A stretch of 10,323 bases of DNA from Candidatus Latescibacterota bacterium. Lineage in GTDB: Bacteria > Latescibacterota > UBA2968 > GCA-2709665. A model generated the notes under the pieces. It saw only the letters and a list, made by a program, of their open reading frames with translations, did no database searches and had not been told where the DNA came from. Shown here piece after piece: positions 1-10,323 of this stretch. The translations under genes and the position numbers were made by a program. The stretch spans positions 1 through 10,323 of the forward strand of contig CAXXJS010000009.1 in assembly GCA_963662665.2 (NCBI GenBank). The letters are read 5' to 3'. The first letter of the stretch is position 1. The number at the start of each line of letters is the position of its first letter.

Positions 1-1
1 C

Positions 2-541
2 ACTCAGGAACTCACGCTGGACATCATGGATCGGCTGTTGCCGTTCGAACGCATTATAGGTACCAAAGACTCCAGCAGGGACCTGCCGCGCCTGATCAAC
101 ACCATGCACCGGCTGCGCGCCAGGCGCCCCGACTACGTGGTCCTTGTCGGCTGCGAAGAAATCCTCTGCCCGTCAATTATAATGGGCGCGAGCGGCGGCA
201 CGATCGCGACGTCCGGAATCATTCCCGAAGTCATCGTGGACATCTACGAAAAAACCCTCTCCGGCGATATCGAAAACGCGCGCAGCATGCAATACCGCAT
301 ACTGGACCTGATCAACCTGATGCTTCTGGGAGTGAACTTTCCTGAAGGGTTTAAAACGGGCGTGGCCGTGCGCGGCTTCGACGTCGGTCCGCCTCGTCAG
401 GCCATGAGCGCCGAGGAGAAGGACTATCTGCTAAAGCTGGAAGCGCAGATCAGCTGCATACTCAGAGACATGGGATATGAAGTCAAGGGCGCCAGAGCCT
501 GTCCGGTCACCAACCTGCCGTCTATTGTCGGAAACGCTTGA
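2..541 (+). CDS. Dihydrodipicolinate synthase (DHDPS/NAL) family class I aldolase/dehydratase, C-terminal part (start lies upstream of the window)
   Basis: The frame is open from position 2 (TQELTLDIMDRLL...). It contains IIGTKDSSRD (Schiff-base Lys motif G-x-K-x-S-S), VLVGCEE...MGASGGTIATSGIIPE and a C-terminal FK...RGFDVGPPR, all typical of DHDPS-like TIM barrels. TGA at 539-541. Confidence 0.85.
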   Translation, partial: TQELTLDIMDRLLPFERIIGTKDSSRDLPRLINTMHRLRARRPDYVVLVGCEEILCPSIIMGASGGTIATSGIIPEVIVDIYEKTLSGDIENARSMQYRILDLINLMLLGVNFPEGFKTGVAVRGFDVGPPRQAMSAEEKDYLLKLEAQISCILRDMGYEVKGARACPVTNLPSIVGNA

Positions 542-617
542 CACGATACGCACGCCCTCGTGCAGTACCCTGATCCGGCCTCGATTTACCGATCAGGTTC
601 ACGTCCGGAGAATTCAG

Positions 618-1562
618 ATGGCGAAAGATGCGCCGCGGCAAAACCTCGTGGATCCCTTCAGCCTGAAGGCCGAAGACGGTTACGTGTGGCTGAAGGGCAA
701 CCTCCACTCCCACACAACGAATTCCGACGGCAAAGCGTCGCCCCAGGAACGCCTGGATGGTTACGTCAACCAGGGATACGACTATCTCTGCCTTTCGGAC
801 CATCGCAGAATCACCCGGATCGATTCCGTGGCCTGTCCGGCAGACTTTGTGCTCATTCAGGGCGCCGAACTGCATCCGGACAACCCGTTCGGAGGTCAGA
901 AGCACCATTTTCTCTGTCTGAACATCCACGAAGACTTGGATTCGGAGAACATGCCCCCTCAGCACGTCATCGACGCCGTTCGCGACCAGGGCGGCAGCAC
1001 GTGGCTGGCCCACCCGTACTGGAGTTCAATCAACATACTCCGCGACACCCTGCCTTTTTCGGGACTGGCCGGCATTGAGGTGTTTAACACAACGTGTCGA
1101 TGCGCGGGACGCGGGGAATCCGGCGTTCACTGGGACGATTGGATGGACCTGGATAACAGGCTGTATCCCGCCCTGGCCAACGACGACTCGCACGCCCTCG
1201 AATCCGACAAACGCGATACCTACGGAGGCTGGACGATGGCGCGCGTGAAAGACCGTTCTCCCCGGGCCATCGTCGACGCGCTCGCAAATGGCGCGAGCTA
1301 TTCGAGTACGGGAGCGGAAATTCACAACATCAGCCTGCACAAGACCATAGGCGAGCCGGCAGCGGTGGAGGCGACGGTGGAATGTTCCGAATCCCGGTGT
1401 ATCGTTGCCATCTGCGATACCTTCGGTACCGAATACAGAGAATCCGGAAATCCATTTACAGAAGCCACCTTCAGGCTGCGTCCGGGCGCGCGCTGGGTCC
1501 GTTTCGAAGTCATCGGAACCGACGGCGCCAAGGCCTGGTCCAATCCATACGACCTCGCTTGA
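618..1562 (+). CDS. PHP-fold (CehA/McbA-like) metal-dependent hydrolase
   Basis: Motifs KGNLHSHTTNSDG, LSDH, GAELH, HHFL, AHP, IEVFN, NDDSH are the PHP-domain metal ligand pattern. Start moved from 477 to ATG 618, which has GGAG at 607-610 and avoids overlapping the upstream gene. Confidence 0.85.
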   Translation: MAKDAPRQNLVDPFSLKAEDGYVWLKGNLHSHTTNSDGKASPQERLDGYVNQGYDYLCLSDHRRITRIDSVACPADFVLIQGAELHPDNPFGGQKHHFLCLNIHEDLDSENMPPQHVIDAVRDQGGSTWLAHPYWSSINILRDTLPFSGLAGIEVFNTTCRCAGRGESGVHWDDWMDLDNRLYPALANDDSHALESDKRDTYGGWTMARVKDRSPRAIVDALANGASYSSTGAEIHNISLHKTIGEPAAVEATVECSESRCIVAICDTFGTEYRESGNPFTEATFRLRPGARWVRFEVIGTDGAKAWSNPYDLA

Positions 1563-1575
1563 AGCGGAAGCCGCC

Positions 1576-2313
1576 ATGGGAATCGCACTGACGCCCAGGC
1601 AGACGGCAGCGTATCGCGCAAACGGATTCATCCAGGTTCCAAACCTGCTGACCGGGCGTGAGATCGACACCTTTCTGGATGCGGAGGCAGGAACGAAGCC
1701 TCCGGAAATCCTGGAACTCGGCCTGCGCAGGCACACCGCCGACCCACAGTGGCGCTATCTGTCATCGCATCCTGGCGTTGCCGGCATCGCGGCGCAACTG
1801 CTGGGCGGTGGGCCGATGATCGTCCAAACCATGTACATGGCGAAGGCGCCGGGAGGCGGTACGGGAATCGCACTGCACCAGGACGCCCACTACATCCGAA
1901 ACGAACCCGACACGCTGATGGCCTGCTGGCTCGCACTGAGCGATACCGACAGAAGCAACGGCGGTCTCTGCGTTGCCGCCGGCAGCCACCTGGCGCCGCT
2001 GCGGAAGACCCGCCCCCCCCAAGACGGCCGCGAACACGCCTCGTGGGTGAAAGATTATGCCATGCGCGGGCCCGACGGGAGGGAATGGACCGAAACCATG
2101 CACTCGCACGAGGTTGCCGGCGTAAATCTCGATGAACTCACCTTTCTTACGGTACCGCGCGGGTCGGGAGTCTTCTTTAACGGCAGAACCATACACGGCT
2201 CGTACGCCAACCGGTCGCGCGGCAGGCCCCGACTGGCGTTCGCGGTTCACTTCGTAAGAGAAGGCACATGGGTCTTTCGCCGGGACATTCAGGATCTCAC
2301 ACCGGCTGCCTGA
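1576..2313 (+). CDS. Phytanoyl-CoA dioxygenase (PhyH) family Fe(II)/2-oxoglutarate dioxygenase
   Basis: N-terminal LT..Q.AAY..NGF, HxD motif LHQDAHY, WLALSD...NGGL.V..GSH, distal His in IHGSYANRS and the 2OG-binding Arg in RLAF. Start ATG 1576 follows GGAAG and lies 13 nt after the previous stop. Confidence 0.9.
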   Translation: MGIALTPRQTAAYRANGFIQVPNLLTGREIDTFLDAEAGTKPPEILELGLRRHTADPQWRYLSSHPGVAGIAAQLLGGGPMIVQTMYMAKAPGGGTGIALHQDAHYIRNEPDTLMACWLALSDTDRSNGGLCVAAGSHLAPLRKTRPPQDGREHASWVKDYAMRGPDGREWTETMHSHEVAGVNLDELTFLTVPRGSGVFFNGRTIHGSYANRSRGRPRLAFAVHFVREGTWVFRRDIQDLTPAA

Positions 2314-2426
2314 GCGGTATTTCCAGTCGTGTATGACCTGAGAGGCCGGGCCGCGCGGCTCGCACACTCGTTATTTGAAGCATCATCGCCGGCAGCCTTC
2401 GAATCTTCAATTTCGGGAACCCCATC

Positions 2427-3395
2427 ATGAAACGCATTGCAAAGCCGGAAGGCGAATACAATATCGTAGTCGAAGACGTACCCATACCGGAAATTGCGCC
2501 CACCCAGGTGCTGATCCGCGCGGAATGCAGCCTGATCAGCCGCGGTTCCGAGATCTGGCGGCGTTACATCCGTCCCGAGGCCATCGATCATCAAAGCATG
2601 GGGTACTCGTTCGTCGGAGACGTGGTTGAGGTTGGAGCGCGCGTGGATGGCTTTTCCATGGGAGACCGTGTGGCCGCAATTGCGCCTCACGCCGAATACG
2701 TCGCCGTTGAAATCGTGGCGTCACGCCACCAGGATCCGGTTGTCCATCTTCCGGACGCCGTCTCCTCCGAAGCCGCGACGTTCTGGCCGCTGAGTACCAG
2801 TTCCGTTCTCTGGATGTGGGAAATCGACGCGAGAAAGGAACAGACCGTCGCCATACTCGGACAGGGTCTCGTAGGCTCGATGTGCATGCAGGCGCTCAAC
2901 GCGGACGTGAACCCCCGGGTTATCGCGGTCGACGCGTTGCCCCTCCGATGCGAACTGGCCGAACGTCTCGGGGCGGACCACGTGGTGGACGCTTCCGGTG
3001 AAGATCCCGTGCGGGCGATCCGACGGCTAACGGACGGCGCCGGCGTCGACGTCGTAGTTGAGGCGGTGGGCGGACGCGCCGGTGCGGCCGCGTTCGCGCA
3101 GGCGCAGGATATGGTGAAACGGAGAGGCCTGATCCAGGTTATCGGATTGTATGAGGATGAGCCGCTACCGCTCGACTCGGGAAAGATCCAGGGCCGGCGC
3201 ATTGTCGGCGGTTATTCGAACGGCGGCAAACGCTCTCTGGGCTCCGACCGCGCGTTACAGCTCCTTGCGCAGAAGAAGATTCGCGCCGGAGAGATGATCA
3301 CCCACCGCTTCCCCTTCCAGGATGCTGCCGAAGCCTTTGACTTGCTGTACAGTCGACTCGGGGAGACGATGGGCGTGGTGCTGGTGTGGAGATAA
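2427..3395 (+). CDS. Medium-chain dehydrogenase/reductase (alcohol dehydrogenase GroES fold), probably NAD-dependent, lacking canonical Zn ligands
   Basis: GroES-like N-terminus (VPIPEIAPTQVLIR...GDVVEVGARVDGFSMGDRV), Rossmann GQGLVG followed by acidic VIAVD, GADHVVD, GVDVVVEAVG, and C-terminal MITHRFPFQDAAEAF. Confidence 0.88.
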   Translation: MKRIAKPEGEYNIVVEDVPIPEIAPTQVLIRAECSLISRGSEIWRRYIRPEAIDHQSMGYSFVGDVVEVGARVDGFSMGDRVAAIAPHAEYVAVEIVASRHQDPVVHLPDAVSSEAATFWPLSTSSVLWMWEIDARKEQTVAILGQGLVGSMCMQALNADVNPRVIAVDALPLRCELAERLGADHVVDASGEDPVRAIRRLTDGAGVDVVVEAVGGRAGAAAFAQAQDMVKRRGLIQVIGLYEDEPLPLDSGKIQGRRIVGGYSNGGKRSLGSDRALQLLAQKKIRAGEMITHRFPFQDAAEAFDLLYSRLGETMGVVLVWR

Positions 3396-3476
3396 GAAAA
3401 ACGTGCGTCGGCGTTCGGGATTATTTACTTGTCGCTCCTGAAACCCGGCGCACGTATGACGTTAACCGGAGGATTT

Positions 3477-4373
3477 GTGAAAAACGGTTTCTACAAGGGC
3501 CACGGTCTCGGCAACGACTATATCGTCATGGATCCGGCCGAACTGGAATTTGAACTCACACCGGACAATATCCGCTACATCTGCGATCGCAACCGGGGCA
3601 TCGGCGGCGATGGCATCCTCACGCTGGAACCCGGAAATGGCGCCGACTACGGCCTGCGCATTCTGAATCCCGACGGCAGCGAAGCCGAAAAGTCGGGCAA
3701 CGGCCTGCGCATTTTCGCCCGCTTCCTCCACGCCACCCGTCGGACGCGAAAGCGTAACTTCACGGTGGACACGATTGGCGGCCGCGTGGAAATCCAGGTA
3801 CATCCGGACCACCACGGCGATGCCAGTCTCGCGACCGTTGAGATGGGGCAGGCCGCGTTCAATCCCGGTGCGCTGCCCTGCACGTTGCCTGGAGGCGAGT
3901 TAATCGGTCGGCCGATATCCGCCGGCGGACGGGAGCTGAAATTCACGGGCGTCAGCGTGGGAAATCCCCACTGCGTCCTCTTCAAACCCGAACACGAGGC
4001 GTGGACCCGCGACGACCTGCTCGAACTGGGTCCGGCCCTGGAGAATCACAAGCTGTTTCCCAATCGCATCAACGTGCAACTGGCCGTGCCCACGGGTCCG
4101 AAGGAAATCTTCATTCTCATCTGGGAGCGGGGCGCCGGGGAAACGCAGGCATCCGGATCGTCGTCCTGCGCGGCGGCATGCGCTGCCGTTCGTCTGGGAC
4201 TGGTGACGTCTCCGGTAACCGTCAACGCTCCGGGCGGCGCCCTGTACGTCGCCATCGACGCGGGGTATCACCTTACCATGAAGGGGCCGGTCTCGGAGGT
4301 GGGGCAGGGCGTCCTGAGTCCGGCGTTTGTCAGGGAACTACAGGACGAAAACAAGGTTTCCGCCGGCAGGTAA
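3477..4373 (+). CDS. dapF: Diaminopimelate epimerase (DapF) family protein with Ser/Ser active-site pair
   Basis: FYKGHGLGNDY, CDRNRGIGGDG, NPDGSEAEKSGNGLR, VSVGNPHCV, LENHKLFPNRINV, WERGAGETQASGSSSCA and MKGP match DapF throughout. Start chosen at GTG 3477 behind GGAGG (3468-3472). Both catalytic Cys positions are Ser, so the substrate is less certain than the fold. Confidence 0.85.
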   Translation: MKNGFYKGHGLGNDYIVMDPAELEFELTPDNIRYICDRNRGIGGDGILTLEPGNGADYGLRILNPDGSEAEKSGNGLRIFARFLHATRRTRKRNFTVDTIGGRVEIQVHPDHHGDASLATVEMGQAAFNPGALPCTLPGGELIGRPISAGGRELKFTGVSVGNPHCVLFKPEHEAWTRDDLLELGPALENHKLFPNRINVQLAVPTGPKEIFILIWERGAGETQASGSSSCAAACAAVRLGLVTSPVTVNAPGGALYVAIDAGYHLTMKGPVSEVGQGVLSPAFVRELQDENKVSAGR

Positions 4374-4384
4374 TCGGACGTCTA

Positions 4385-5497
4385 TTACGCCACCCGATAC
4401 TTCGCCACAGTTTCCTCGTTAATCGTCACCCCCAGACCTGGACCCTCCGGCACCGCAACGTATCCATCGACAATTTCGAAGCGCTGGTGCGTCAGTTCGT
4501 GGCGCAGCGGGGATTCCGACATGCAATACTCGAACATCTCCCCGCCCGGTACGGCGGCGAGCGCGTGAAGCGACGCCGCGATTGTAATCCCGCTCTTGAA
4601 GCTGTGGTTCACCACGCCTGCCCGGCGGCGGTGCGCCATCCTTCCCACCGCCACCATGGTCGAAATACCGCACCGTCCCGGGTCAGGCTGCACCCAGTCC
4701 AGCCCGCCGTCGGCCACAAGACGCTCGAACGCGTCGAGCCGCGCTTCCGCTTCACCCGCCGCGATGGGCAGGGGGCTTTCCGCCGACAGCCTCGCGTAAC
4801 CGCGCAGGTCTGACGGATGAAGTGGTTCCTCGAGCCAGAACGGGCGGAACTCCGCGAACCGGCGCGCACGCTCCAGGGCCGTCTTCCAGTCCCAGACCTG
4901 CCCCGCGTCGATCAGCACGTCCACCCCGTCTCCCACGCCCCGGCGTGCCTCCCGTACCAGGGCGATATCGGTCTCCTCGTCCTGTCCCATCGGCCCCCAG
5001 CCGAATTTGACCGCCGTAAAACCCTCTCCCGCAAATCTCCGCCCGAGTTCTCCGGTCTGCGCGGGCGAATCGCCGAACAGAATTGAACAGTACGCCCGGA
5101 AACGCTTTCTGAAGGGCCCGCCCAGAAGCCGGTAGACCGGCCGGTCACATGCTTTGCCGGCGATATCCCAGAGCGCAAGATTGACGCCCGCCATGGCGTG
5201 CAGCGCCACACCCCCTCCTCCGTAGTAGTTCGCCGCATCCATCATACGATGCATACACACTTCCACCGCCAGCGGGTCCTCAAGGTAGAGCGCGTTTGCC
5301 AGACCGTTACAGATCCGGTGCGAAAGCGGCGCGTCCACAATGGCCTTGACGGCCGATGGACAGGAATCCACCTCTCCCCACCCCGTGAGGCCGGCGTCGG
5401 TCTCCACCCTGACCAAACAGGTATCCTGCGTTCCGTCACAGGCGTCGGTGACGCGGGGCAGCCGCAACACCATTGCGGTCACACGGGTGATTTTCAT
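4385..5497 (-). CDS. Mandelate racemase/muconate lactonizing enzyme family protein (enolase superfamily, probable acid-sugar dehydratase)
   Basis: N-terminal MKITRV...VRVETDAGLTGWGE, AGVNLALWDIAGK...PVYRLLGG, metal ligands LIDAG / WLEEP / AAGE, and the His-Asp dyad QPD...NHS. GGAGG RBS upstream on the - strand (5504-5508). Confidence 0.92.
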   Translation of the reverse strand: MKITRVTAMVLRLPRVTDACDGTQDTCLVRVETDAGLTGWGEVDSCPSAVKAIVDAPLSHRICNGLANALYLEDPLAVEVCMHRMMDAANYYGGGGVALHAMAGVNLALWDIAGKACDRPVYRLLGGPFRKRFRAYCSILFGDSPAQTGELGRRFAGEGFTAVKFGWGPMGQDEETDIALVREARRGVGDGVDVLIDAGQVWDWKTALERARRFAEFRPFWLEEPLHPSDLRGYARLSAESPLPIAAGEAEARLDAFERLVADGGLDWVQPDPGRCGISTMVAVGRMAHRRRAGVVNHSFKSGITIAASLHALAAVPGGEMFEYCMSESPLRHELTHQRFEIVDGYVAVPEGPGLGVTINEETVAKYRVA

Positions 5498-5583
5498 TTC
5501 AAGCCTCCGATAATAGAAGACAGCAGGCGGCGCTACATCGAAACCGGGCTCAATTGCACGTGAACAGTGGTTCCCGGTTCCGC

Positions 5584-5612
5584 ATGATACCCACCCGCGT
5601 CCGTACTGTCAA
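5584..5612 (-). promoter_or_regulatory. sigma70-type promoter for the enolase-superfamily gene
   Basis: On the - strand: TTGACA (5612-5607, perfect -35), a 17-nt spacer, then TATCAT (5589-5584, 5/6 match to -10). It lies about 85 nt upstream of the ATG at 5497. Confidence 0.7.
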
Positions 5613-5747
5613 TCCCCAGACGCGGGATCGGCCGCCGGCATTAGTGTCCCGTCCCGCTGCGTTACCCTCCCTCGCCGACCTTGCCCGGGTCGCCTTGCTC
5701 CGGTGCCTTGCCGGCCGGGCGAGTCGACGGCCAAATCCAGGCAATCC

Positions 5748-5760
5748 ATGTCCGGGACAT
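5748..5760. promoter_or_regulatory. Palindromic operator-like site ATGTCC-G-GGACAT
   Basis: Perfect 6-bp inverted repeat with a 1-nt centre, ending 15 nt upstream of the putative + strand -35 box in the divergent intergenic region. Confidence 0.4.
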
Positions 5761-5775
5761 AACACCAGAAACGGG

Positions 5776-5804
5776 TTGCACCGGCGCGTCGTTCACCGTA
5801 GATT
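5776..5804 (+). promoter_or_regulatory. Putative sigma70-type promoter for the phyH/SDR/dehydratase unit
   Basis: TTGCAC (5776-5781), a 17-nt spacer, then TAGATT (5799-5804, keeping the key T-A---T bases). It lies 50 nt upstream of ATG 5855. Confidence 0.45.
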
Positions 5805-5854
5805 ATTCGCGACCTGCACGGTTCCAAATGCTGTCTTGAACCAGGGATCCCGCC

Positions 5855-6616
5855 ATGCCTGCCGTCGAAAACCTGAGTGAAACCTACGAAGCCAATGGCG
5901 TGCTGCCTCGAATCGACGTATTCTCCGAAACAGAGATCAGCGCATTCAGGGCACAGTTCGACGAACTCGAAGCCAGAGAAGGCAGAGGCGTATGCCAGGT
6001 GGGCCTTCAGTCCCGGCACTTCGAAGAGGAATTCATCTGGCGGTTATCCACAGACGCGCGTCTTCTGAACGTCATGGAACGGGCCATGGGTAAAGATATC
6101 CTTCTGCTGGCCACGCATTTTTTCTGCAAATACCCCGCCAGGGCCGAAAAACACTTTGTCGCGTGGCACCAGGACGTGACCTACTGGGGCCTTAAGCCGC
6201 CGCTGGCGCATACGGCCTGGATTGCCATAGACGACAGCGACGTGGAGAACGGCTGCATGCGGGTTATCCCGGGATCCCACAAGAGCGGGATCGTCACCCA
6301 CGGCACGTCGGAACGGGCGGGGAATTTATTGAGCATCAACCAGGAAATCCCGGACGAACTCGTCGACACCAGCCGTGCGATAGACCTTGTACTCAGCGCA
6401 GGCCAGATGTCGGTCCACAACGGCCGGCTTTTCCACGCAAGCATGCCCAACACCTCGAACCGGCGGCGTTGCGGCCTTACCGTCCGCTTTATCCCGCCGG
6501 AAGCCAGACAGGTCGAAGACAACTCGATCGGCCAGGACTGGCGGCCCGTTCTGCTTCGGGGCCTGAACCGGTACGGGCACCACCCCGAAATCTCCATGCC
6601 CTTTCCACTGCCATAG
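5855..6616 (+). CDS. Phytanoyl-CoA dioxygenase (PhyH) family Fe(II)/2-oxoglutarate dioxygenase
   Basis: YEANGV, FFCKYP, HxD motif WHQDVTYWGL, WIAIDDSDVENGCMRVIPGSH, and LFHASMPNTSNRRRCGLTVRFI. Confidence 0.92.
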   Translation: MPAVENLSETYEANGVLPRIDVFSETEISAFRAQFDELEAREGRGVCQVGLQSRHFEEEFIWRLSTDARLLNVMERAMGKDILLLATHFFCKYPARAEKHFVAWHQDVTYWGLKPPLAHTAWIAIDDSDVENGCMRVIPGSHKSGIVTHGTSERAGNLLSINQEIPDELVDTSRAIDLVLSAGQMSVHNGRLFHASMPNTSNRRRCGLTVRFIPPEARQVEDNSIGQDWRPVLLRGLNRYGHHPEISMPFPLP

Positions 6617-6627
6617 AGAGAATTGCG

Positions 6628-7497
6628 ATGGCGAAACGCAGGGTAGTCATCACCGGCGCGGCCGGATATATTGCGGGCAGGAGTCTGCCGGCCCTCAGAG
6701 AGCGCTATGACCTCGGCCTGCTGGACGTCCGCAAAACCGACAGGTCCGGCAACAAAGTGGAGGGCATCATTCAGGCCGACCTCCTGAACCGGGACAGGGA
6801 TGGGTACAGGAAGCACTTCAGGGGCGCAGACGCGGTTATACATTGCGGCTTTACCCGCGCAAAGGAACCGGAGGATCAGTACTGGGCCGAATCGGACAAC
6901 GTCGCCATGGCGTACAACGTTTACCAGACCTGTCTCGAAGAGAACGTCCGTCGGGTCGTGGTCATCAGCTCCAATCATGCGGCCGACTACTACGAGACCC
7001 TCATCTGGTCCGGGCGCATGGATTTCGTTACGCCGGATATGCTCCCGCTTTCCGACAACTTTTACGGGTGGGCCAAGGCCGCGTACGAACTGCTGGGCTT
7101 CGCCTTTGCTGCGGGAAAGATCGGAAACGGACGGAAACTACAGAATGTTCAGCTTCGCATCGGCGGGCCCCGCGAGAACGTGGCGGACAGACTCAGTCCG
7201 GAAAACCCAAAGGGCATGCACCGCAGCCTCGGGGCCTACCTGAGCGCGCGTGACCAGACCCAGCTTTTAGTCAAGAGCATTGAGACGGAGAACATCGAAG
7301 ACGAGAACGGCATCCCCTTTCAGATTTTCTACGGCATCAGTGGAAACAGCCACAATTTCTGGAGTATCGCCAACGCCCGCAGGCTCATCGGCTACGATCC
7401 GGAAGATAACAGCCTGATCCGGTTTGCCGACAGGATCGCACCCGTTCTTGCAGCCGCGAAGCGGGACAAAGAAAGGGGCGTAAACTCCGATTCGTGA
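6628..7497 (+). CDS. Extended SDR / NAD-dependent epimerase-dehydratase family protein, uronate-dehydrogenase-like
   Basis: VVITGAAGYIA Rossmann motif, ISSNHA, catalytic YGWAK (YxxxK), LRIG, YLSARD and FYGISGN...W, the motif series seen in uronate dehydrogenase-like SDRs. Start moved to ATG 6628, 11 nt after the previous stop and behind AGAGAG. Confidence 0.82.
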   Translation: MAKRRVVITGAAGYIAGRSLPALRERYDLGLLDVRKTDRSGNKVEGIIQADLLNRDRDGYRKHFRGADAVIHCGFTRAKEPEDQYWAESDNVAMAYNVYQTCLEENVRRVVVISSNHAADYYETLIWSGRMDFVTPDMLPLSDNFYGWAKAAYELLGFAFAAGKIGNGRKLQNVQLRIGGPRENVADRLSPENPKGMHRSLGAYLSARDQTQLLVKSIETENIEDENGIPFQIFYGISGNSHNFWSIANARRLIGYDPEDNSLIRFADRIAPVLAAAKRDKERGVNSDS

Positions 7498-7599
7498 GTC
7501 GCTCGGGTCTCCCTTTTGATCCGCATGGCCCGAAGCGGATCCGAACTTCCGGATACCCGGAAACGCGGGGTCGACGGAGTCCCCCGAGAGGTCATTCTC

Positions 7600-8724
7600 A
7601 TGAAGATCACCCGCCTTGAAACGGTCCCCGTTGCCCAGCGGTTCCTCGTGCTGAAAATGCACACAGACGAGGGCGTGGTCGGCTATGGAGAACCCCTGGA
7701 CTATACGCACTGGCGTATCGTGGCGCGGGCCATTGACGACCTGGCCGAATACCTCATCGGCAAGGATCCGCTCCAGATCGAAGACCACTGGCAGACCTTC
7801 TTTCGCTCCACGTACAGCCGCAGCATGCCGATTATCGTTGGCGCGCTCAGCGGCGTGGATATGGCTATGTGGGACATCATGGGCAAAGTCCTGGACGTTC
7901 CCGTCTGGAGACTTCTCGGAGGCTCGGTCCGGGACCGGGTCCGGGTCTACGCCCACGCCGGGGGGAACACGCCGGAATCCTGTGCGGTACAGGCACGCAA
8001 ACGGGTCGCCGACGGGTTCACGGCCATCAAGATGGGCGGCGCCGTCAGACCCGTCCGTTTTGTGGATACGGCAAGAGCCGTCGACGAAATGGTCGCCCGT
8101 GTCGCCGCCGTACGCGAAGCCGTGGGCGACGACGTGGACATTGCGGTCGATCTGCACCGCCGCCTCAGCCCGCAGATGGCCGTCATCACCGTCAAGGCGC
8201 TCGAACCCTATCATCTGCTGTTTGCGGAAGAACCCTGCCATCCCGAGAACAACGACGCCCTGCTGACCCTTTCCCGATCGACCTCCACACCCATCGCAAC
8301 CGGCGAGCGCCACCTCACTCGCTGGAGTTTCTGGGACATCGTGGAAAAGCAGGCCTGCGCCGTTCTGCAGCCTGATATCCGGCATGTGGGAGGCATATCG
8401 GAAATGAAGAAAATCGCCACCCTGGCGGAAATCAGGGACATTGCCCTGGCGCCGCACAACGCCGCCGGTCCCATCGGCGTCGTCGCTTCCATCCATACCA
8501 TGGCCACGGTCCCCAATTTTCTCATCTGCGAGGGCGGCACCGTACGCGGCGACGGCCTTCTGACGCCTCCGCTCACGTTCAACGGCGGATTTATCGAACT
8601 TCCCACAGGTCCCGGTCTCGGGTTCGAAATCGACGACGACGCCCTCGATGCCATGCGGGACGAACGCTTTCGCTTCCGAGGCATGTGGCGCTCGGAAGAA
8701 GATGGATCCTTCGCGGACTTCTAG
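7600..8724 (+). CDS. Galactonate dehydratase (DgoD)-like enolase-superfamily enzyme
   Basis: MKITRLET...LKMHTDEGVVGYGE, ALSGVDMAMWDIMGK..DVPVWRLLGGSVRDRVRVY, DLHRR (DgoD-type D-x-H-x-R), FAEEP, IATGER and QPDIRHVGGISEMKKIA...APHN..GP. Start ATG 7600 follows GAGAGG. Substrate not certain, so no symbol is given. Confidence 0.85.
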   Translation: MKITRLETVPVAQRFLVLKMHTDEGVVGYGEPLDYTHWRIVARAIDDLAEYLIGKDPLQIEDHWQTFFRSTYSRSMPIIVGALSGVDMAMWDIMGKVLDVPVWRLLGGSVRDRVRVYAHAGGNTPESCAVQARKRVADGFTAIKMGGAVRPVRFVDTARAVDEMVARVAAVREAVGDDVDIAVDLHRRLSPQMAVITVKALEPYHLLFAEEPCHPENNDALLTLSRSTSTPIATGERHLTRWSFWDIVEKQACAVLQPDIRHVGGISEMKKIATLAEIRDIALAPHNAAGPIGVVASIHTMATVPNFLICEGGTVRGDGLLTPPLTFNGGFIELPTGPGLGFEIDDDALDAMRDERFRFRGMWRSEEDGSFADF

Positions 8725-8792
8725 CAGATAACCCGACTGGAAACCCGCGGCAACGGACTACCGACATGCATGAGACAACCCACGGGTACCGT

Positions 8793-10031
8793 ATGCGAAA
8801 CCGATGGCTCGCCGCGCTCGCACTGTCCGTTTCGTCTTTGCTGCCGGTTGACGTGTCAGGCCGCGCGGATGACAGAACCTCCCCGGTGGACCGCAGCCCG
8901 TTTGCCATTCGCCAGGAATTCAATGCGGTCTCGGCGCAGATCGACAGTCTGATTCGCGTGATGAGCGCGGCCGACCCGGGAGCCATCGACAAAAAACGTC
9001 TGCCCGGAACCGCCGATGTCCTGCGTCTTCCGAAAGGGACCTCGGTTGTCTGCATCTTCTGGGCTGATGACGAGGCGCGCGTGTGGATCAATGACTTCCC
9101 CGTCGGCGAAACCCGCCTCACGCCGGTGGAGGTCGAGGTCCCGCACCTCTACCTCAAAGACAGGAATCGGATCCGCGCCAGGTGCTGGGACACCGACCAC
9201 GTGGAAAGCGGATTCCTCTTCGGTCTCTTTCTGAAGGAAGCGAACGGCGCGCTGCACCCGATTCTGGTTTCCGACGACACCTGGCAGACCGGAAGTGGCC
9301 CGGCACTCGAAATCATCTATGCGCATCCCGTTCCCGACATCCCGTCGGCCCGGGTTATCTGGCATTCCATGATCTTCGGACAGGCGGAATTCTCAAAAGG
9401 ATTCACCCGGCGGGAAATCGAACAGGCCCTGTCGAAACCATCGCGGGCGCAGGCGCCGAAGACCCGGCGGAAACGCATGGACTACCACGGTTTCCTGCAG
9501 AATCTGCTTTCCCTCCAGGAAACACGCGCCAGACTCAAGCGCCAGCTGCAGGAAACCACGGATCCCGTCCTTCAGACCGCTTATACGGGACATCGGAATC
9601 CGGAAGTCAGCTTCACTCTGGGCAAGGCAGGACCGCTCAAGGAAGAGACGTCGCTCACCTTCGCAAAGGAAGTCGAACTGTGGGCGGAGAAACTGGCCGA
9701 GACGGAAAAGCGCCTCGTCTATCCCGATAAACGGACGCTGAAGGGAGAAGACGCCGCCATTGCTGCCGCGGGACCGGCGGCGTTCGGCACGAAGAGCGGG
9801 GAACGTACAGATGCCTATCGCCCGCCCGACGAACGGTCGCCCGGCGAACAAACGGTTTCTGAACGGCGCGAAAGGGAAGGCAAATCCGTTGCGACCGACT
9901 CCGGTGAACGCGGAGGATTCGGAGCAAGCAGCGGGCGCGGGTCGCGTGCGGGACTGCTGTTTCCCAGCATCATCCTCGCCGCCTATATCTGGTACGTTAT
10001 TTCGAAAGGAACGGATGCATTACGAATCTAA
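8793..10031 (+). CDS. Uncharacterised exported protein with probable signal peptide, beta-sandwich (CBM-like) domain and C-terminal transmembrane anchor
   Basis: Long open frame co-oriented with the upstream genes. N-terminus MRNRWLAALALSVSSLL is signal-peptide-like and the C-terminus GLLFPSIILAAYIWYVISK is hydrophobic. The start is uncertain (ATG 8766 or 8793, no strong RBS). Confidence 0.7.
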   Translation: MRNRWLAALALSVSSLLPVDVSGRADDRTSPVDRSPFAIRQEFNAVSAQIDSLIRVMSAADPGAIDKKRLPGTADVLRLPKGTSVVCIFWADDEARVWINDFPVGETRLTPVEVEVPHLYLKDRNRIRARCWDTDHVESGFLFGLFLKEANGALHPILVSDDTWQTGSGPALEIIYAHPVPDIPSARVIWHSMIFGQAEFSKGFTRREIEQALSKPSRAQAPKTRRKRMDYHGFLQNLLSLQETRARLKRQLQETTDPVLQTAYTGHRNPEVSFTLGKAGPLKEETSLTFAKEVELWAEKLAETEKRLVYPDKRTLKGEDAAIAAAGPAAFGTKSGERTDAYRPPDERSPGEQTVSERREREGKSVATDSGERGGFGASSGRGSRAGLLFPSIILAAYIWYVISKGTDALRI

Positions 10032-10323
10032 CCTTGATTCGTATTTCTTCAGGGAAGTAAAACCGAATATATGCAAGTAGATAAAGGCGATTTAACTTCT
10101 GATTACCAGGATACACCAGGTCACTGGACGTGAACTGAGAAAACGTCCTTTTTGACGACCGTTACGCCCCGTATCGGGGGTTTTCGTCGCGTTGCCGAGT
10201 TGCTGTTTTTTTCGAATTGGGGCTAACCTTGATTCGTTATTTTTCCGGGACGTAGAATCGAATATAGGCAAGTGGATAGAGGCGATTTGACGGCTGATTA
10301 CCAGGATACACCAGGTCACTGGA
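10028..10323. repeat. Tandem 195-bp-period non-coding repeat (unit 1 10028-10222; unit 2 from 10223, cut by the window edge)
   Basis: 10028-10128 aligns without gaps to 10223-10323 with 13 mismatches in 101 nt by hand count. The first 15 nt (CTAACCTTGATTCGT) and the last 30 nt (CTGATTACCAGGATACACCAGGTCACTGGA) are identical. Confidence 0.93.
10126..10153 (+). terminator. Possible intrinsic terminator inside repeat unit 1
   Basis: GGACGT (10126-10131), an 11-nt loop, ACGTCC (10143-10148), then TTTTT. It lies about 95 nt downstream of the last CDS. The stem is short. Confidence 0.35.

Follow-up and report, generated by a model that had tools for sequence, protein, structure and literature searches.

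Two adjacent copies of a dispersed element, very probably a transposable element of the miniature inverted-repeat kind with a 4-bp target-site duplication, at the end of a Latescibacterota contig

We analysed a stretch of 10,323 nucleotides from Candidatus Latescibacterota bacterium (contig CAXXJS010000009.1; this whole stretch is called the window), the right end of which holds a repeat with a period of 195 bases. A repeat search of the window paired positions 10028-10128 with 10223-10323 as a direct repeat (start-to-start distance 195, 87% identity), and direct comparison found the same base at 88 of the 101 positions. All 13 mismatches fell within 10043-10098, leaving invariant stretches of 15 nt at 10028-10042 and 30 nt at 10099-10128. 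BLASTN of the first unit (unit 1) against the window returned two copies only, the second with an E value (9e-32) far beyond chance. GC content was 38.6% over 10028-10128 and 45.5% over the 191-bp unit delimited below, compared with 61.3% over window positions 1-10027. Tandem Repeats Finder gave no entry at the repeat because the window, which cuts the second unit (unit 2) at its 97th base and leaves the right end of that unit outside, holds merely ~1.5 units. An earlier note on this DNA, made from the sequence alone, had described two head-to-tail units 195 nt apart and about 87% identical, with unevenly spread mismatches, identical 15-nt and 30-nt blocks and a low GC content in the first 101 nt of unit 1, all of which was reproduced here. 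It had offered as candidates a non-autonomous mobile element inserted in tandem and an array of structured RNAs or protein-binding units. We find that the repeat very probably represents two adjacent copies of a transposable element of the miniature inverted-repeat kind (MITE), which is dispersed in related Latescibacterota genomes and flanked by a 4-bp target-site duplication.

Further copies were sought in reference genomes using a degenerate 27-nt pattern of the invariant block, made codon-degenerate to serve coding and non-coding readings alike. The scan, of a collection in which the window's own genome was not included, matched at least 105 loci (numbered L001 etc.) in 10 metagenome-assembled genome (MAG) assemblies labelled Latescibacterota or Gemmatimonadota. 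Among the matches listed, loci were distributed over JAPPJY01 (27), JAPPFJ01 (23), JAGWBX01 (21), OZ242358.1 (17), JAPPNU01 (7), OZ220733.1 (4), OZ242180.1 (2), CAZKDZ01 (2), OZ241917.1 (1) and OZ250150.1 (1), and the window's exact 27-mer occurred in 86 of 109 distinct pattern matches. The 5.2-Mb chromosome OZ242358.1 carried at least 17 loci, some with two or three pattern matches. An nhmmer search with a profile of 92 copies, covering the fetched pattern-scan loci and the window, gave 159 hits corresponding to 144 distinct copies (103 in the full-length class), so that the family has at least 144 copies; homologous copies in relatives, for which the earlier note had proposed a search, are indeed numerous. 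Unit 1 was 93% identical to L098 and 91% identical to L025. The closest relative of the window among the matches listed was JAGWBX01, with L103 matching window positions 5826-6027 at 95.5% over 202 nt.

Copies of the family have sharp borders. Column identity rose from ~20-40% to 80-99% at CCTTG on the left and dropped again directly past a YTAA tetranucleotide on the 3′ side. The element proper was 191 bp long and ran from CCTTGATTCG to CGGATTGAGG in the family (CGAATTGGGG in the window), as delimited over 129 left ends and 107 right ends, with per-position conservation of 84-99% at the left end (129 ends) and 76-99% when both ends are considered. The termini are imperfect 10-bp inverted repeats, with CCTTGATTCG agreeing at 7 of 10 positions with the reverse complement of either CGGATTGAGG or CGAATTGGGG. 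Flank profiles showed both termini bordered by YTAA, with random sequence farther out.

The bordering tetranucleotide varied with the site of insertion. It was the same on both sides in 59 of the 97 full copies with flanks. In copies with TAA on both sides (n = 59), the preceding base agreed in 53 (CC in 31, TT in 22) and differed in 6, and rare flank forms (CTAG, TTAG, TGAA, TTGA, TTCA, TAAA) also matched within a copy. Near-identical members of the main subfamily were bordered either by CTAA on both sides or by TTAA on both sides, so that the site, rather than the element, supplies the tetranucleotide; as the 3′ tetranucleotide covaries with the 5′ one, it is a duplicated target rather than a fixed element end. 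We also joined the two flanks of each copy and searched the joined sequence in other loci for empty sites. A TTAA-element-TTAA arrangement in L046 (2298-2495) had a single TTAA as its counterpart in L014, with flanks 87.5% identical over 505 nt, and TTAA/TTAA in L095 had a single TCAA as its counterpart in L074. Further occupied/empty pairs (L040 with L059, L075 with L074) both had diverged junctions, while three orthologous sites were occupied in both assemblies. The element thus combines what is expected of a MITE: small size (50-1000 bp), no transposase-coding capacity, many dispersed copies, terminal inverted repeats, a fixed 4-bp target-site duplication and a single target at empty orthologous sites. 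The suggestion of a non-autonomous mobile element in tandem is upheld by the dispersed family, the sharp borders and inverted repeats, the site-dependent duplication and the empty sites.

The same flanks bear on a different kind of mobile element. The unit could be an IS200/IS605-type palindrome-associated or repetitive extragenic palindromic (REP)-like element, which would be moved in single-stranded form by a Y1 (HUH) transposase, insert 3′ of YTAA and end in its own YTAA cleavage site. Palindrome-associated elements derived from IS200/IS605, and REP/RAYT systems, are short, non-coding, multi-copy hairpin units beside a specific tetranucleotide, and they are not known to have target-site duplications or terminal inverted repeats. 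Our element resembles them in having subterminal hairpins at both ends (ATTCG...CGAAT near the left end and a long one lying 25-60 nt in from the right terminus), weak terminal inverted repeats and a tetranucleotide 5′ of its left end, as in the IS200/IS605 family. Unlike theirs, however, its flanking tetranucleotide is duplicated and site-dependent. The 3′ tetranucleotide tracks the 5′ one copy by copy (53/59), including CTAG/CTAG and TGAA/TGAA and even within one near-identical subfamily, and it is single at empty sites, where fixed ends without duplication would be seen for an element of the IS200/IS605 kind. Pfam scans of neighbouring ORFs (open reading frames) found no Y1 transposase or RAYT gene. 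We therefore give an IS200/IS605-type origin a very small probability.

We also assessed the RNA reading raised by the earlier note. In the form considered here, the units would be structured small RNA genes, in an array or as a family multiplied through the genome, and each would have its own promoter (TTGATT-N18-TAnAAT), a transcribed core in which the CCAGG repeats lie, and an intrinsic terminator or two. Some of the expected signals were seen. A consensus scan found a promoter-like TTGATT-18-TAGAAT in unit 2 and three terminator-like sites in 9800-10323 (0.9 expected), the hairpins pointed out earlier are present in the sequence, the six named helices paired in 89.1% of cells over 94 copies, and a run of at least six T near the 3′ end was kept in 62 of the 94. 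Shuffled sequences, however, behaved much the same: their helices paired in 88.2% of cells, and 8 pairs were changed on both sides where shuffles had 8.3, with 346 of 500 shuffles reaching the observed number. A covariation score came out marginally high, at a level that 5 of 500 shuffles reached; relatedness alone can cause this. The folding energy of unit 1 was no better than that of shuffles (z = −0.63 on the plus strand, −0.84 on the minus strand), and RNAalifold on 94 of the 97 full copies returned 4 pairs at −2.07 kcal/mol. Rfam 15 gave 0 matches at the gathering score in the whole window and none at E ≤ 10 in 9950-10323; the Rfam search and the covariation test proposed earlier both came out negative. 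The promoter rule that flagged unit 2 was passed by only 6 of 94 copies, a first hairpin followed by a T-run occurred in only 14 of 94, and the pairing register of the long 3′ hairpin differed among subfamilies. Orientation to the neighbouring gene end was unbiased (14 versus 12 copies, see below), and RNA genes would leave the site-dependent flanking duplication and the empty sites unexplained.

As far as these alignments can tell, the hairpins show no sign of selection. The hairpins, promoter-like hexamers and T-runs are not evidence of an RNA gene and were probably inherited as remnants of the ends of a parent insertion sequence. Block-wise conservation between the two units had been read as functional constraint, a view that did not hold at the level of the family, where the whole unit was similarly conserved (103 contexts aligned with the window, and pattern-independent copies). 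Taken with the lack of an Rfam match, the four RNAalifold pairs and the absence of any compensatory or folding-energy excess, the array of structured RNAs or protein-binding units lacks support, and we consider RNA genes very unlikely as the explanation of the repeat.

Returning to the MITE, its tandem arrangement would follow from the way in which such an element would insert. A DDE-type transposase encoded elsewhere would bind the terminal repeats and make a 4-nt staggered cut at a YTAA target, which gap repair would duplicate. Each insertion would leave YTAA on both sides, and a later insertion there would produce a head-to-tail pair sharing the tetranucleotide, which would account for a period of exactly 195 (191 + 4). 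Unit 1 would have inserted at the CTAA containing the TAA stop of the gene at 8685-10031, with the duplication keeping the stop, and a unit of another sublineage would afterwards have entered the 3′ CTAA of unit 1. Over the same 97 nt, unit 2 matched L095 at 96.9% and unit 1 matched L094 and L025 at 94.8%, compared with 87% between the two units. By these identities the units of the window are independent insertions of different sublineages, which is why they are unlike each other, and the earlier view that they are diverged copies rather than a fresh duplication stands. Head-to-tail pairs sharing a YTAA were also found in L055 (in the complete chromosome OZ242358.1), L029 and L101, with units ~80% identical. 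The outer flanks of L055 and L029 could be read and enclosed two units, no more, while the L101 pair is truncated where its 341-nt locus ends. Composites of another form occurred in L007 (9780-10180, minus strand), L047 (9864-10126), L032 and L073, where a 5′ fragment of 56-71 nt is fused to a full unit at an internal TAA and the rest of the first unit, on its 3′ side, is missing. Three of these four were in JAGWBX01 and had the same junction, which suggests that the composite itself was copied. The composites would be nested insertions that later moved as such.

Two adjacent units could also stem from local tandem duplication (through slippage or through unequal crossing-over) or from an artefact of assembly at the contig end. 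In favour of this, unit 2 is cut by the end of the window, short-read assemblies are commonly broken or collapsed by repeats, and contigs of related MAG assemblies begin or end inside copies (L008, L020, L094, L103). Neither origin would make each unit nearer to copies elsewhere than to its 87%-identical neighbour, nor place the same YTAA-sharing junction in independent assemblies, complete chromosomes included, and we hold both to be hardly plausible. Tandem small-peptide genes (20 aa, MQVDKGDLTSDYQDTPGHWT), such as precursors for a modification enzyme encoded outside the window, were rejected by the family alignment and have next to no credence: six mismatches separate the ATG-to-TGA ORF of unit 1 from unit 2, of which three are synonymous third-position changes and two conservative (K>R, S>A), but the ATG is lost in unit 2, in 77 of 92 copies examined the frame is closed by an in-frame stop two codons 5′ of the conserved block with no start after it, and no recurrent neighbouring enzyme gene was found by ORF clustering and Pfam. 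An ORF of any kind in that frame occurred in only 15 of the 92 (18-60 aa), and in view of the 77 closed copies the small ORF of the window is an accident of its subfamily.

Table 1 Features at the right end of the window, with the basis of each assignment.
Feature	Position	Strand	Basis
Upstream gene, 448 aa	8685..10031	+	ORF list; the TAA stop (10029-10031) falls within the CTAA duplicated 5′ of unit 1
5′ target-site duplication of unit 1, CTAA, 4 bp	10028..10031	+	Flank profiles, within-copy agreement, empty sites
MITE unit 1 (very probable), complete, 191 bp, 45.5% GC, non-coding	10032..10222	+	Full-length match to the family profile (profile positions 3-201)
Left terminal inverted repeat, CCTTGATTCG	10032..10041	+	Left-end profile, 129 left ends
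Chance ORF inside unit 1, 20 codons, not a gene	10071..10133	+	Family alignment
Right terminal inverted repeat, CGAATTGGGG	10213..10222	+	Right-end profile over 107 ends
CTAA common to both units (3′ duplication for unit 1, 5′ flank for unit 2)	10223..10226	+	Sequence, profile matches
MITE unit 2 (very probable), first 97 bp only, of another sublineage than unit 1	10227..10323	+	Identity comparisons

Insertion at a stop codon, as for unit 1, was common in the family. Of 75 copies with enough flank to be examined, 14 had a 5′ duplication that served as the stop of a co-directional ORF (at least 100 codons) and 12 a 3′ duplication that ended a convergent ORF, which makes 24 distinct copies on stops overall. 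The two orientations were nearly equal, which argues against an orientation-dependent function. A YTAA target would be expected to be enriched at gene ends in a genome of 61% GC, and the duplication would restore the stop. In three copies on ORF stops (L001:9928, L026:9928 and L049; ORFs of 1134, 563 and 462 codons), the 5′ duplication read CTGA and the 3′ one CTAA or CTGG; the changed 5′ copy is still a stop, as expected if the stop is under selection. The 448-aa ORF upstream of unit 1 matched no family in a Pfam scan; it has a hydrophobic stretch near either end, and its C-terminal third is charged and of low complexity. Farther upstream, Pfam assigned the genes within window positions 1-8724 to a DHDPS-family lyase, two PhyH-type dioxygenases, a zinc alcohol dehydrogenase, a DapF-like epimerase, two enzymes of the mandelate-racemase/enolase superfamily and an NAD-dependent epimerase, and this neighbourhood looks like an amino-acid or sugar-acid catabolic cluster.

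A transposase that could mobilise the element was sought in several ways around the copies. A regular-expression search for pairs of terminal repeats 450-4000 bp apart turned up no transposase; two such pairs with a spacing of exactly 1721 bp, in L017 and L052, were dismissed as coincidence, the two stretches being without mutual similarity. The loci yielded 1983 ORFs of 200 aa or more, which we clustered, and Pfam found no transposase among the representatives of the 30 largest recurrent clusters, nor among 8 ORFs beside partial copies and the 55 ORFs of lowest GC content. No IS5-type transposase was found beside any copy in the Pfam scans, and the ORFs scanned were ordinary cellular, defence-type or unassigned proteins. 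Two tandem low-GC ORFs of 413 aa in L007 were considered as transposases and rejected as paralogous secreted proteins.

Longer non-coding variants of ~330-400 nt were observed in L014, L026 (3727-4120), L036, L045, L046 and L074. They have the first ~110 nt in common with the element, those of L026, L036 and L074 also have its right terminus, and their interior is a different, CT-rich module with its own inverted repeats. They are a second MITE subfamily with the same ends. As left ends of an autonomous element they were rejected, as they are non-coding and the ORFs downstream encode a periplasmic binding protein and the like.

Several observations weigh against the identification of the repeat as a pair of MITE copies. 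The terminal inverted repeats are short and imperfect (7/10), and no transposase with matching ends was found in the ~1.6 Mb searched around existing copies. The 3′ end of unit 2, and with it the 3′ side of its own duplication, lies beyond the window, and the outer 3′ flank of the pair in L055 is ATGA, unlike the CTAA at its junction. In L103 (JAGWBX010000020.1, contig end) a copy lies immediately upstream of the counterpart of the PhyH gene whose start is at window position 5855, and the window has no copy there; the corresponding junction in the window, at ~5826, reads CCAA and not YTAA, and as the contig of L103 ends inside the element only one border is visible. Near-invariance of the 27-nt block is partly a product of the scan, which required it. 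In the 11 full copies that were found independently of the pattern, this block showed roughly the same conservation as several other stretches.

The Correia elements of Neisseria are bacterial MITEs and provide a comparison system. BrickBuilt/MITEPgRS of Porphyromonas gingivalis is another, and the sections of PMC4596501 that bear on it give 10-20 copies per genome as typical for MITEs, which the at least 17 loci in OZ242358.1 match or exceed. Like the MITEs described in those sections (PMC4596501), our element is small (50-1000 bp), AT-richer than its genome, multi-copy and without a transposase; it also shares terminal inverted repeats, a target-site duplication, a mostly intergenic location and presence or absence that varies between relatives. 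It differs from them (PMC4596501, same sections) in its ends, which start with CC whereas the IS5-related elements of P. gingivalis and Neisseria are of the GAGACC type, and in its uniform 4-bp YTAA duplication, compared with the variable flanks of BrickBuilt. Its sequence matches no known family.

Candidate transposase families were compared by target and ends. IS5 prefers YTAR targets, which would include CTAA and TTAA, and IS5-type ends would be expected to start with GG or GA. The 4-bp duplication is a further likeness to the IS5 group, as ISPha2 and ISPmar3 have direct repeats (DR) of 4 in Table 2 of PMC3281130, while IS5-family ends begin GAGAC in the sections of PMC4596501 on these elements and those of our element begin CCTTG. 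A likeness to the IS1380 family comes from ISEcp1, the left inverted repeat of which is given as CCTAGATTCTACGT in the relevant part of PMC6061673: its first ten bases agree with CCTTGATTCG at 8 of 10 positions, a match that is lost past position 10 (8/14 overall) and that was picked after the fact, with no insertion-sequence library comparison behind it. The same part of PMC6061673 gives AT-rich duplications for ISEcp1 (TAATA, TAAGA). Duplications are 5 bp for ISEcp1 and IS1247 (that part of PMC6061673; Table 2 of PMC3281130), and an IS1380-type element would be expected to combine ends of the form CCTAGATTC... with a 5-bp duplication, in contrast to the 4 bp found here. IS5 and IS1380 each fit in part as the transposase family.

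Two further observations concern the genomes that carry copies. Syntenic proteins of JAPPFJ01 (labelled Gemmatimonadota) and of OZ242358.1 and OZ220733.1 (labelled Latescibacterota) were 97-99% identical (for example L012 with L055 and L012 with L030), such that phylum labels disagree among MAG records of what look like very close relatives. Low-GC ORFs with defence-type domains were observed near copies at L059:18480-20027, L074:464-7465, L076:2914-4284, L002:6157-7215 and L043:3-1307. The domains were GmrSD N-terminal, NERD with a UvrD-like helicase, AAA_15/AAA_21 ATPases and a type I restriction S subunit, and these loci may be defence islands, located like the element in AT-rich DNA that is prone to insertion.

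A full-text literature search returned no paper mentioning both Latescibacter and miniature inverted repeats, and the family was not described among the titles and abstracts listed on sponge-symbiont MITEs and on IS5-family/TTAA MITEs. The element belongs to a well-known kind of which this member had not been described before; it is an ordinary genome parasite, and nothing here alters general knowledge of MITEs. Because 24 of 75 copies lie on ORF stops and the element brings hairpins and a T-run, one could imagine copies recruited as mobile 3′-end cassettes, serving as terminators, mRNA-stabilising hairpins or sources of small RNAs; such recruitment, perhaps with movement by an undescribed transposase lineage, which is entertained because no insertion sequence combining CCTTGATTCG ends with a 4-bp YTAA duplication was identified, seems to us unlikely.

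For annotation, the element accounts for the ends of this contig and of several related MAG contigs, and the 20-codon ORF, the promoter-like site and the hairpins should not be annotated as genes or RNA elements. Presence or absence of copies provides markers for distinguishing these uncultured Latescibacterota lineages. The family indicates that a transposon of the cut-and-paste type has been active in these genomes, with a YTAA target that often coincides with a stop codon, such that the upstream gene is left intact.

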